This document shows positions 13,265 to 16,015 of a stretch of 64,000 bases of DNA, in pieces. A program made the position numbers and the translations under genes. How positions within the stretch are numbered: position 1 is the first letter of the stretch; every line of letters starts with the position of its first letter. The stretch covers positions 8,574-72,573 of the forward strand of contig DATHUV010000034.1 of the NCBI GenBank assembly GCA_035461905.1, written 5' to 3'. The notes under the pieces were generated by a model. The model was not told where the DNA came from and searched no databases. It saw only the letters and a list, made by a program, of their open reading frames with translations. The DNA comes from Acidimicrobiia bacterium (GTDB taxonomy: Bacteria > Actinomycetota > Acidimicrobiia > Spongiisociales > UBA5794).

Positions 13265-14932
13265 ATGGCGAAGAAGATTCACTCCCAGGACGTCACGATC
13301 GGTCCCGCTCGCGCAGGTGCGAGGGCGATGTTGCGGGCGGTCGGCCTCGGCGAGGACGACTTCGCCCGCTCCCAGATCGGGGTGGTCTCCGCCGGCAACG
13401 AGGTCACTCCCTGCAACGTCACCGGTCCGAAGCTGGCGGGCATCGCCAAGGTCGGGGTCAGGGGTGCCGGGGCCGTCGGACTCGAGTTCGCGACGATCGC
13501 GGTGTCTGACGGCATCTCGATGGGCCATGAGGGAATGCGGGCGTCCCTCGTGTCACGCGAGGTCATCGCCGACTCGGTCGAGCTGGTCATGCACGCGGAA
13601 CGCTTCGACGGCATGGTCGCCATTGCAGGATGTGACAAGTCACTCCCCGGCATGCTGATGGCGGCGGCCCGCCACAACCTTCCCTCCGTCTTCCTCTACG
13701 GCGGCTCCAGCCTCCCTGGACGTGTCGGCGGAAAGGACATCTCGATCGTCGACGTGTTCGAGGGCATCGGAGCACACTCCGAAGGGACGATCACCGATGC
13801 CCAGCTCCTCGAGATCGAGCAGAACGCCTGTCCGGGAGCGGGGTCGTGCGCAGGCATGTTCACGGCGAACACGATGGCGTCCGTCGGGGAGGCAATCGGG
13901 ATGTCGCTTCCCGGTTCGGCAGCAGTGCCAGCGGTCGACGCACGGCTCGAGGAGTACGCCCTCCGCTCGGGTGAAGCGGTCGTGGCGCTCCTCGAAGCCG
14001 ACATCCGCCCTCGCGACATCATGACGAGGGACGCCTTCGAGAACGCGATCACCACGGTCATGGCACTCGGAGGATCCACGAACGCCGTGCTCCACCTCAT
14101 GGCCATCGCCCACGAGGCCAGGGTCGACCTCACGCTCGAGGACTTCGACCGGATCTCGCGCCGTACCCCCCACATCGGCGACATGAAGCCGTTCGGCCGA
14201 TACCACATGGTCGATCTGGACAGGATCGGCGGGGTTCCGGTCGTGCTGCGGGCACTCCTCGATGCCGGGCTCCTCCACGGTGACGCAATGACCGTCACGG
14301 GGCGCACCATGGCGGAGAACCTGGTCGACGTTGTCGTGCCGGAGGACCAGGACGTGGTTGTCCCGGTGGATCAACCGCTCGCTGACCATGGGGGCATCGC
14401 GATCCTGCGCGGATCACTCGCTCCCGAGGGCGCCGTCGTGAAGATCGCAGGAATCGACCTCGACGTGTTCGAGGGGCGGGCCCGTGTCTTCGACGACGAG
14501 CAGCATGCACTCGAGGCACTGTGGAACCACGACCTGCATCCCGGGGATGTCGTCGTGGTCCGATACGAAGGACCAAAGGGCGGTCCGGGGATGCGGGAGA
14601 TGCTTGCCATCACCGCCGCCATCAAGGGAGCGGGCCTCGGCAAGAGCGTCCTCCTCATCACCGACGGCCGGTTCTCCGGTGGAACCACGGGTATGTGCAT
14701 CGGCCACGTTGCACCAGAGGCGGCGAACGGTGGGCCCATCGGCCTCGTCGAGGAAGGCGACCGGATCAGGGTCGACCTGCCGAAGCGAACCCTCGACATG
14801 CTCGTCGACGCCGACGTCCTCGCGAAGCGGCGCGACTCTTGGGAGCCCATCGCTCCTCGGTATGCGACGGGCGCCCTCGCCAAGTACGCCAAGCTCGTCG
14901 GCTCGGCGGAATCCGGCGCTGTCCTCGACTGA
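13265..14932 (+). CDS. ilvD: Dihydroxy-acid dehydratase
   Basis: From ATG 13265 ([27 protein letters not shown]). Supporting sequence: [48 protein letters not shown]. Confidence 0.93.
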
Positions 14933-14992
14933 GGGGGATCGTTCCACGCACGCACGGGAATCGCGCCCGCCGCACCCGTTAGGATCCCCCGC

Positions 14993-15247
14993 ATGAAGCT
15001 TTCCATCGAGTACTGCGCAGCCTGAGGCTATACCGACCGTGCCGTGAGCATGGTGCAGGCAATCCTCGGTAAGTTCGAGCACTACATCGACGACGTCACC
15101 GTGATCCCCTCCCGGGGAGGCGTGTTCGAAGTCATCGCAGGCGACGAGTTGGTCTTCTCCAAGAAGGAACTCGGCCGCCACGCGACGATCGAGGAGGTCA
15201 TCGACTCCCTCGACGCCATCATCGGTCCCGTTCCGGGATCCTCGTAA
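14993..15247 (+). CDS. SelW/Rdx-family selenoprotein candidate with in-frame TGA (Sec) at 15023-15025
   Basis: ATG 14993 is preceded by AGGA 8 nt upstream. The translation is MKLSIEYCAA-TGA-GYTDRAVSMVQAILGKFEHY...VIPSRGGVFEVIAGDELVFSKKELGRHATIEEV. The TGA is in frame with track ORF 15044..15247 and sits at the second redox position of the Rdx CxxC/CxxU motif. Confidence 0.7.
15032..15070 (+). promoter_or_regulatory. Candidate bacterial SECIS hairpin downstream of the in-frame TGA
   Basis: ACCGA (15032-36) pairs with TCGGT (15066-70), and TGCC (15040-43) pairs with GGCA (15058-61). The 14-nt apical loop begins GT, 19 nt after the TGA. The upper stem is only 4 bp, so this is weak. Confidence 0.35.
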
Positions 15248-15287
15248 CTCCGCACCGCTACCGGTCGTCCGTCGGTACCTTCCGGTC

Positions 15288-15479
15288 ATGCACACCGGGC
15301 GTTCGAACGCGATCCTCCTCGCCGACCTCCTGTCCCAGGACGGTCCGCACATCCGCATCGCGGATGACTTCGTCCGTGCCGTGTGCGCACACTGCGGGCA
15401 GCCCCTGACCGACGACCCACGGTTCGGGGAATGGGGCGCCTACTGCGCGACATGCTGGGTCGACTTGCGAGCGGTGTGA
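15288..15479 (+). CDS. Small hypothetical protein with two CxxC pairs (zinc-ribbon-like)
   Basis: 63 aa with CAHCG ... CATCW. Codon usage is consistent with its neighbours. No family recognised. Confidence 0.5.
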   Translation: MHTGRSNAILLADLLSQDGPHIRIADDFVRAVCAHCGQPLTDDPRFGEWGAYCATCWVDLRAV

Positions 15480-15544: not shown

Positions 15545-16015
15545 ATGAACAGTGATGTGAAACCGATCCTCGCGATCGTGGCTGTCGTCGCAGTGGCCGT
15601 GATCGCAGTCATGGCATTGCGCGGGACCTATGTCGACACCGAGGTACATCCCCCTGTCGACCTCGGAACGCCCGGTGACACCGTGCCGGGCGGCGGACCG
15701 ATCGCCGTCGTCGTCTCGAAGCTCGAGACGCCGGGCAGCTCCTTCTTGTGGTTCCGCCGCAGCAACCCTTCATACGAGGTGACCGTCCAGTTCTTCGCCC
15801 CACCCGGATGCTCGGGTTCGGTCAGCTTCGAAGACCCATGGCCGTCGTCGGACCCGGTGTGTGCCACGGACGTGCCGGTGGCCGGGATCGTGTCGGGTAT
15901 CGGAACGACGCAGACAAGCGAGTCGATCATCGCCGTTGATGTTCAGGTCAATCCCGAGTGCTTCGCGGCCGTGGAGCCGGGTGATTACTGGCCGTCCGCT
16001 GCTGCGTGTCCGTGA
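15545..16015 (+). CDS. Membrane-anchored hypothetical protein
   Basis: 156 aa with an N-terminal TM helix (ILAIVAVVAVAVIAVMAL) and an extracytoplasmic domain containing 4 Cys. Confidence 0.6.
   Translation: MNSDVKPILAIVAVVAVAVIAVMALRGTYVDTEVHPPVDLGTPGDTVPGGGPIAVVVSKLETPGSSFLWFRRSNPSYEVTVQFFAPPGCSGSVSFEDPWPSSDPVCATDVPVAGIVSGIGTTQTSESIIAVDVQVNPECFAAVEPGDYWPSAAACP

Follow-up and report, generated by a model that had tools for sequence, protein, structure and literature searches.

Does the in-frame TGA at codon 11 of a short gene from an uncultured Acidimicrobiia bacterium terminate translation, or does it specify selenocysteine (Sec)? The gene lies on the forward strand of a 64,000 nt stretch of contig DATHUV010000034.1 (assembly GCA_035461905.1; hereafter the window, with a G+C content of 65%), and an earlier note on this DNA had taken it for a SelW-like selenoprotein of the Rdx family. 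The elements named there are all found at the positions given: the start codon ATG at 14993-14995, the AGGA at 14981-14984 separated from it by an 8 nt spacer, the TGA as codon 11 (15023-15025), and a frame that reads MKLSIEYCAA-TGA-GYTDRAVSMVQ and continues into the 67-aa open reading frame (ORF) from GTG 15044. The full frame, 14993-15247 (+), comprises 84 codons followed by the stop codon TAA (15245-15247), and its predicted product is MKLSIEYCAAUGYTDRAVSMVQAILGKFEHYIDDVTVIPSRGGVFEVIAGDELVFSKKELGRHATIEEVIDSLDAIIGPVPGSS. We put the probability that this gene is a Sec-encoding member of the SelW-like (Rdx) family at roughly 0.9. The family is well known, this member of it is new and at present mis-annotated, and its novelty is confined to the locus and to the uncultured Acidimicrobiia lineage that carries it.

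Coding on both sides of the TGA

The family assignment depends on the codons upstream of the TGA. When Sec was written as Cys, the 84-aa product matched the Pfam Rdx profile (PF10262) with 69.3 bits over positions 2-72 of 74 (cut-off 22.6). The 67-aa ORF alone still passed the gathering score, with 41.0 bits over positions 19-72; the 17 upstream codons add 28 bits and extend the match to the N-terminus of the profile. The NCBIfam model TIGR02174 (CXXU_selWTH; cut-off 34.2) gave 56.0 bits over positions 1-73 of 74 with the 84-aa product versus 30.8 bits with the 67-aa ORF. Because the TIGR02174 cut-off is passed only with the upstream codons, and the Rdx score is 69.3 with them versus 41.0 without, these codons are needed for family membership. 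The proposed Rdx/SelW affiliation is thus upheld by both profiles, and the hidden Markov model comparison suggested for it covers the 17 upstream codons. The Campylobacter-type equivalog NF041051 scored 70.8, under its cut-off of 88, and therefore the product does not belong to that specific subfamily.

Solved structures place the TGA within the family alignment. A phmmer search of Protein Data Bank sequences matched the Cys-type proteins Atu0228 (2fa8, IRYCTQCNW) and SAV_2001 (3dex, IEYCTQCRW). The first Cys of their CxxC motif aligns with Cys8 (TGC, 15014-15016) and the second falls on the TGA column, in agreement with the earlier placement of the TGA at the second redox residue. Cys8 is invariant in 45/45 Acidimicrobiia loci and throughout a 22-sequence family alignment, and the predicted motif C8-A-A-U11 directly follows the N-terminal β strand, as the Rdx family demands. 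Eight proteins of the Rdx family have solved structures, and a profile made from the 22 sequences matches every one of them, with E values between 1.3e-19 (2fa8) and 2.4e-7 (mammalian selenoprotein W, 2npb), which suggests a thioredoxin-like α/β fold for the product.

We scanned one genome per GTDB species for orthologues and obtained 80 loci, 79 of which can be aligned from the start codon. As the search patterns included MKLSIEYC, this sample is biased to that N-terminus, not to TGA over TGC or TGT. About 47 of the 80 loci are titled Acidimicrobiia, Actinomycetota or Actinomycetes and share 94-52% identity with the window product; the others, from Marinimicrobia, Poribacteria, Gemmatimonadota, Planctomycetota, Chloroflexota and further groups, share 36-53%. 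The arrangement ATG...C-x-x-TGA is present in 79/79 alignable orthologues, with MKLSIEYC almost invariant apart from I/L at the position of Ile5, and a Cys codon at the CxxU column occurs in 0/79 of these species representatives from several phyla. A locus whose 5′ end is cut off (L036) has the same IEYCAA-TGA. The DNA of close relatives (the 2.70 Mb ENA contig_91, JGI contigs and others) likewise carries MKLS[I/L]EYCAA-TGA-GYTDRAV in frame and keeps the LytR-IlvD-Rdx synteny; in the window, the upstream gene ilvD (13265-14932) is terminated by a TGA 60 nt before ATG 14993.

The codons preceding the TGA are translated. Across 45 distinct Acidimicrobiia-type sequences, the amino acids of codons 2-10 are kept and their synonymous sites are variable, with six codons each in use for Leu3 and Ser4, four for Ala9, and a 20/25 split for Glu6. 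We draw the conclusion of translation because the amino acids are invariant while the synonymous sites change freely. Upstream of the ATG, the sequence has diverged among the Acidimicrobiia loci except for a TAnnnT hexamer. The earlier note had held a start at the GTG-equivalent position in orthologues to be evidence against it; none starts there, and MKLS[I/L]EYCxx-TGA is retained in every orthologue, with the codons ahead of the TGA varying synonymously.

Gene callers take the TGA as a stop and therefore report a 65-67-aa fragment that starts inside the hairpin described below and is devoid of strand β1 and the CxxU active site. Such truncation had been anticipated, and the 120 matches listed from a collection of 5.8 billion proteins are all 63-70 aa long and cover ~75% of the query, that is, they are truncated calls; several of them bear the JGI name 'selenoprotein W-related protein'.

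The downstream hairpin and the start site

Immediately downstream of the TGA, positions 15036-15054 (+) form a predicted bacterial selenocysteine insertion sequence (SECIS) hairpin, ACCGUGC-CGUGA-GCAUGGU, with the 5′ arm at 15036-15042, the loop at 15043-15047 and the 3′ arm at 15048-15054. In the published bacterial SECIS (bSECIS) model, the apical loop has 3-9 nt and the upper stem 4-16 bp, the distance from the UGA is 16-37 nt, a G occupies the first or second position of the loop and mostly precedes a G or U, and the minimum free energy is -7.5 kcal/mol or lower (PMC13188914, Fig. 2). The window hairpin agrees with this model in all respects (7 bp; 5 nt loop CGUGA with G at position 2, then U; 17 nt spacing; -8.6 kcal/mol). 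Both start codons taken by ORF finders sit within the hairpin: the loop contains GTG 15044, and ATG 15050 belongs to the 3′ arm.

Among 44 distinct Acidimicrobiia sequences, the six core pairs of the hairpin are invariant and the closing pair is AU in 29, GC in 4 and unpaired in 11. The codons that it covers are frozen in this clade: Arg16 is CGT in 45/45, Ser19 is AGC in 35/35 and Tyr13 is TAT in 40/45 sequences, although the window genes use these codons rarely, CGT for 12% of Arg, AGC for 16% of Ser and TAT for 14% of Tyr residues. In contrast, Arg41 and Arg62 outside the hairpin use 5-6 codons. These results indicate that the Acidimicrobiia hairpin is under selection at the nucleotide level, as judged from codon usage and alignment.

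We also aligned 35 loci of other phyla, together with two divergent loci that are actinobacterial or from Chloroflexota. Here an equivalent hairpin with a GUN-type loop lies 4-5 nt further 3′, and in this alignment, as in that of the Acidimicrobiia, the G of the loop does not vary. Pair 30-42, both members of which are third codon positions, is CG in 11, AU in 8, GC in 8, GU in 3, UA in 3, UG in 1 and unpaired in 1 of 35. The covariation score of this hairpin is 0.329 versus 0.132 ± 0.015 for shuffled alignments, none of 500 of which reached it, and controls slid along the alignment gave at most 0.131. The family thus contains two SECIS positional classes, with the loop starting 17 nt after the UGA in the Acidimicrobiia (CGUGA/AGUUG) versus 21-22 nt in other phyla (GUN). 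Two loci, L053 and L057, belong to the second class despite protein sequences nearer to the first group. Pairing of 15020-15027 with 15064-15070, which would form a lower stem around the UGA (overall 15020-15070, +), is weakly suggested by 79.5% paired cells and by changes on both sides in 3/7 pairs (e.g., CG in 18 and UA in 13), and we propose it tentatively.

The hexamer TAGGAT at 14980-14985 (+), 7 nt before the ATG, is a putative -10 element. A TAnnnT motif is found 6-7 nt before the ATG in 43/45 distinct Acidimicrobiia loci, in the form of 17 different hexamers, and L021 would also fit if its ATG were moved one codon upstream; a second TAnnnT is absent from the 60 nt upstream of the ATG in these loci. 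A TAnnnT -10 element about 6-7 nt before the start codon, with no Shine-Dalgarno (SD) sequence, is the architecture of mycobacterial and actinobacterial leaderless promoters. In the Acidimicrobiia, SD-like matches occur only in loci whose hexamer is TAGGAT. The AGGA that had been read as an SD is therefore present at the spacing described, but it is probably part of the -10 box TAGGAT rather than a conserved SD sequence.

As TAnnnT is kept 6-7 nt before the ATG in 43/45 relatives, a leaderless mRNA is implied, with TAGGAT as its likely promoter element. Only 0.47% of all ATG/GTG triplets in the window (20 cases) are preceded in this manner, and 14 of the 20 open coding-type ORFs. Those with the gene lengths seen in relatives include ilvD (555 aa), inositol monophosphatase (263), enoyl-CoA hydratase (285), SDR (256) and the 63-aa neighbor described below. 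Many window genes have TAnnnT 6-7 nt upstream of the start codon and no leader, with ORF lengths equal to the calls in relatives; examples are the starts at 13265, 18382(-), 22639(-), 10150, 26976(-) and 59185. Judging from these starts, leaderless transcription appears common in this genome. In other phyla, the same ATG is preceded at 4-8 nt by a canonical AGGAG(G). ATG 14993 is thus the start codon, whether leaderless or SD-led, and the statement that GTG 15044 has no SD holds: neither GTG 15044 nor ATG 15050 is preceded by an SD-like motif in the window or in 76/78 orthologues.

For the clade as a whole we lean, with some reserve, towards a leaderless message whose 5′ end would be only 30 nt from the UGA and 43-62 nt from the SECIS, so that -10 box, AUG, UGA and SECIS would fit in ~75 nt. 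If this is true, SelB would have to recognize the SECIS on a message loaded by the 70S ribosome directly at its 5′ terminus, and the compressed cassette would amount to a minimal unit for selenoprotein expression that occurs in nature, with a SECIS under such constraint that 19 nt do not vary among 45 species.

Probable selenocysteine insertion and its alternatives

Sec recoding, which the earlier note had preferred, is supported by the TGA in 79/79 alignable orthologues and by a SECIS-type hairpin at the right distance. In the mechanism that we propose, transcription probably starts at or beside the A of ATG 14993, driven from the TAGGAT box, and yields a leaderless mRNA. The ribosome would meet the UGA at codon 11, where the hairpin 15036-15054 with its loop CGUGA would act as a bacterial SECIS and, by analogy to the established bacterial mechanism, recruit SelB-GTP-Sec-tRNA(Sec) so that Sec is inserted without termination. 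The expected product is a small oxidoreductase of thioredoxin-like fold with a Cys8-x-x-Sec11 thiol/selenol center; for the SelW-like family, a redox function of this kind is suggested by the CxxU motif together with the thioredoxin-like fold seen in solved homologues.

Several results weigh against Sec insertion at this site. The bSECIS test is permissive, being passed by 4/31 ordinary TGA stops and by 180/1681 (11%) TGA trinucleotides. An 81 nt region is no more stable than its shuffles in single-sequence folding (z = 0.42), only 38/79 orthologues pass a strict version of the bSECIS model with an isolated hairpin and no bulge, and no relevant Rfam match was obtained at either the gathering or a permissive threshold. 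The Acidimicrobiia hairpin shows conservation with almost no covariation because its core is invariant and only the closing pair varies. As for the trans-acting factors, tblastn with E. coli SelA, SelB and SelD found no match at E < 0.1 in the 64 kb window, ARAGORN found no tRNA-Sec and indeed no tRNA gene of any kind there, and selA, selB, selD and tRNA-Sec were not found in 1.17 Mb of orthologous flanks. Nor does the window contain a second selenoprotein gene detectable by a scan for redox motifs (CxxU, UxxC, TxxU etc.), which recovered the target alone.

The same redox-motif scan of 640 kb of Acidimicrobiia flanks gave nothing convincing, and the window (1-64000) contains no Rfam family at the gathering threshold. 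A scan for TGA-interrupted coding frames in the window based on G+C content at third codon positions returned antisense frames and gene ends only; we rejected it as insensitive to N-terminal Sec because even the target was missed. Relatives have an AIRS/AIRS_C gene ~9.5 kb downstream; we rejected it as a candidate selD, as it is purM followed by purF.

Use of Sec by this lineage is made plausible, indirectly, by the order Actinomarinales within the same class, where 84/84 complete genomes carry selA/B/C/D and encode ~5 selenoproteins each (bioRxiv 10.64898/2026.04.03.716425). The most abundant predicted selenoprotein family of Actinomarina is 78 aa long and has neither a UniRef90 hit nor a KofamScan assignment (same source). 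The SelW-like orthologues L038-L058 from Acidimicrobiia are 77-78 aa, the length of that family, and the Actinomarina family may be the SelW-like one.

Could the UGA be read through as an amino acid other than Sec, by near-cognate Trp or Cys insertion or another form of recoding, stimulated by the hairpin in a genome that has no Sec machinery? The inserted residue is not readable from sequence alone, and the trans-acting genes were not observed in the window or the orthologous flanks, both of which would suit this explanation. However, the TGA column corresponds to the second redox residue, for which Sec/Cys alternation is documented in this family and Sec dominates (427 versus 56 in the Global Ocean Sampling (GOS) data), the hairpin has SelB-type features (small loop, invariant G then U, right spacing), and selA/B/C/D are known from the same class. 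Moreover, TGA is a single change from TGC or TGT, yet none of 79 species has a Cys codon there; because of this one-base distance, the encoded residue does not seem replaceable by Cys. We regard non-Sec read-through as quite unlikely. Termination at the UGA, with the 65-67-aa ORF from ATG 15050 or GTG 15044 as the real gene and the upstream 10 codons as non-coding sequence or a mini-ORF, is less likely still. It would account for the short calls among all 120 protein matches listed, for the 41 bits with which the short ORF alone passes the Rdx gathering score, and for the absence of visible Sec machinery in the 64 kb window. But its product would be devoid of the β1 strand and the CxxC/U motif (profile positions 19-72) and stays below the TIGR02174 cut-off; codons 2-10 are under purifying selection at the protein level with free synonymous change; the internal starts have no SD in 76/78 loci and lie inside a conserved hairpin; and the conserved -10-like box puts the mRNA 5′ end at ATG 14993.

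Two further explanations are scarcely credible. A Cys codon, TGC or TGT, that was mutated in a pseudogene or misread as TGA through a sequencing or assembly error would need only a one-base change (TGC to TGA), but the same TGA recurs in independent assemblies encoding the same protein and in 79/79 alignable species-level representatives of several phyla, with purifying selection on both of its flanks. Genome-wide reassignment of TGA, for example to Trp or Gly (codes 4 and 25), is refuted by the 31 of 42 high-confidence window ORFs, ilvD among them, that end normally in TGA at gene ends matching the calls in relatives. With TGA otherwise the main stop codon of the genome, the recoding would be site-specific. 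We therefore retain Sec insertion at codon 11.

Neighboring genes and comparison with known systems

Two conserved ORFs follow the selenoprotein gene. The first, 15288-15479 (+), begins 40 nt 3′ of it and encodes 63 aa (MHTGRSN...VCAHCGQPL...YCATCW) with two CxxC pairs. It has only sub-threshold zinc-ribbon matches, is called without a Pfam family in relatives L001-L005, L009 and L092, and has its own TAnnnT (TACCTT, 15276-15281) 6 nt before the ATG. This ORF may therefore form a leaderless unit of its own, and a functional tie to the SelW-like gene is possible. The second, 15545-16015 (+), encodes 156 aa with an N-terminal hydrophobic segment, has no Pfam match, and is syntenic in L001-L005, L092 and L093.

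The result is mainly a correction of annotation, as the gene is recorded, among the matches listed, as a 63-70-aa fragment devoid of the CxxU active site. Recognition of the gene implies that this uncultured Acidimicrobiia lineage uses Sec, and predicts selA/B/C/D in its metagenome-assembled genomes. It holds nothing conceptually new on selenoproteins; of minor, specialist interest are that the transcript is probably leaderless and that the SECIS is frozen throughout the clade at rare codons and shifted relative to other phyla.

Knowledge of bacterial SelW-like proteins with CxxU dates back to the early 2000s. Bacterial SelW-like selenoproteins of this type (PF10262, formerly PF05169; TIGR02174) were described by Zhang, Fomenko and Gladyshev in 2005 (PMC1088965), Zhang et al. 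in 2006 (PMC1794560) and Zhang and Gladyshev in 2008 (PMC2398784). According to these studies, Sec forms outnumber Cys forms by 48 to 7 in the Sargasso Sea and by 427 to 56 in GOS, the family ranks first in abundance among the prokaryotic selenoprotein families of marine metagenomes, and organisms that use Sec have few Cys homologues of it, or none (PMC1088965, PMC1794560, PMC2398784). The novelty of the present gene is low because of this abundance, and the earlier note was right to limit it to locus and lineage. Nothing essential distinguishes the gene from its known bacterial counterparts: all are ~75-90 aa long, with an N-terminal β strand followed by CxxU, an in-frame UGA and a hairpin immediately downstream, and Sec forms far exceed Cys forms, here by 79 to 0. 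What is particular is the source, an uncultured, high-GC (65%) group of Acidimicrobiia from soil, sediment or vent metagenomes, and, relative to the other phyla sampled, a lineage-specific, nucleotide-frozen SECIS 4-5 nt nearer the UGA on a transcript that is probably leaderless.

The Cys-type bacterial Rdx proteins (2fa8, 3dex, 2ojl, 2p0g, 2oka and 2obk) belong to the same family (profile E = 1e-19 to 2e-13), and their [I/L]-x-Y-C-x-x-C aligns to IEYCAAU of the window product. They differ in having Cys for Sec, in being ~20 residues longer (103-108 aa), and in the sequence CTQC[NR]W versus CAAUGY here. Mammalian selenoprotein W (2npb; profile E = 2.4e-7) and MIEN1/C17orf37 (2ljk; 5.7e-12) have a homologous Rdx domain, and the former has CxxU at the same position. 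Eukaryotic SelW, however, relies on a SECIS in the 3′ untranslated region with SBP2/eEFSec, whereas the element described here lies in the coding region directly after the UGA, as in the bacterial mechanism. With a 17 nt core, CCGUGC-CGUGA-GCAUGG, that begins 11 nt after the UGA, the window hairpin matches the minimal SECIS geometry reportedly established for E. coli by Liu et al. in 1998. Like the E. coli fdhF-type SECIS, the hairpin is located within the coding sequence shortly after the UGA and has a small apical loop with G then U; unlike it, the hairpin has no bulged U in the upper stem, its binding by SelB is predicted only, and the two elements share no sequence similarity.

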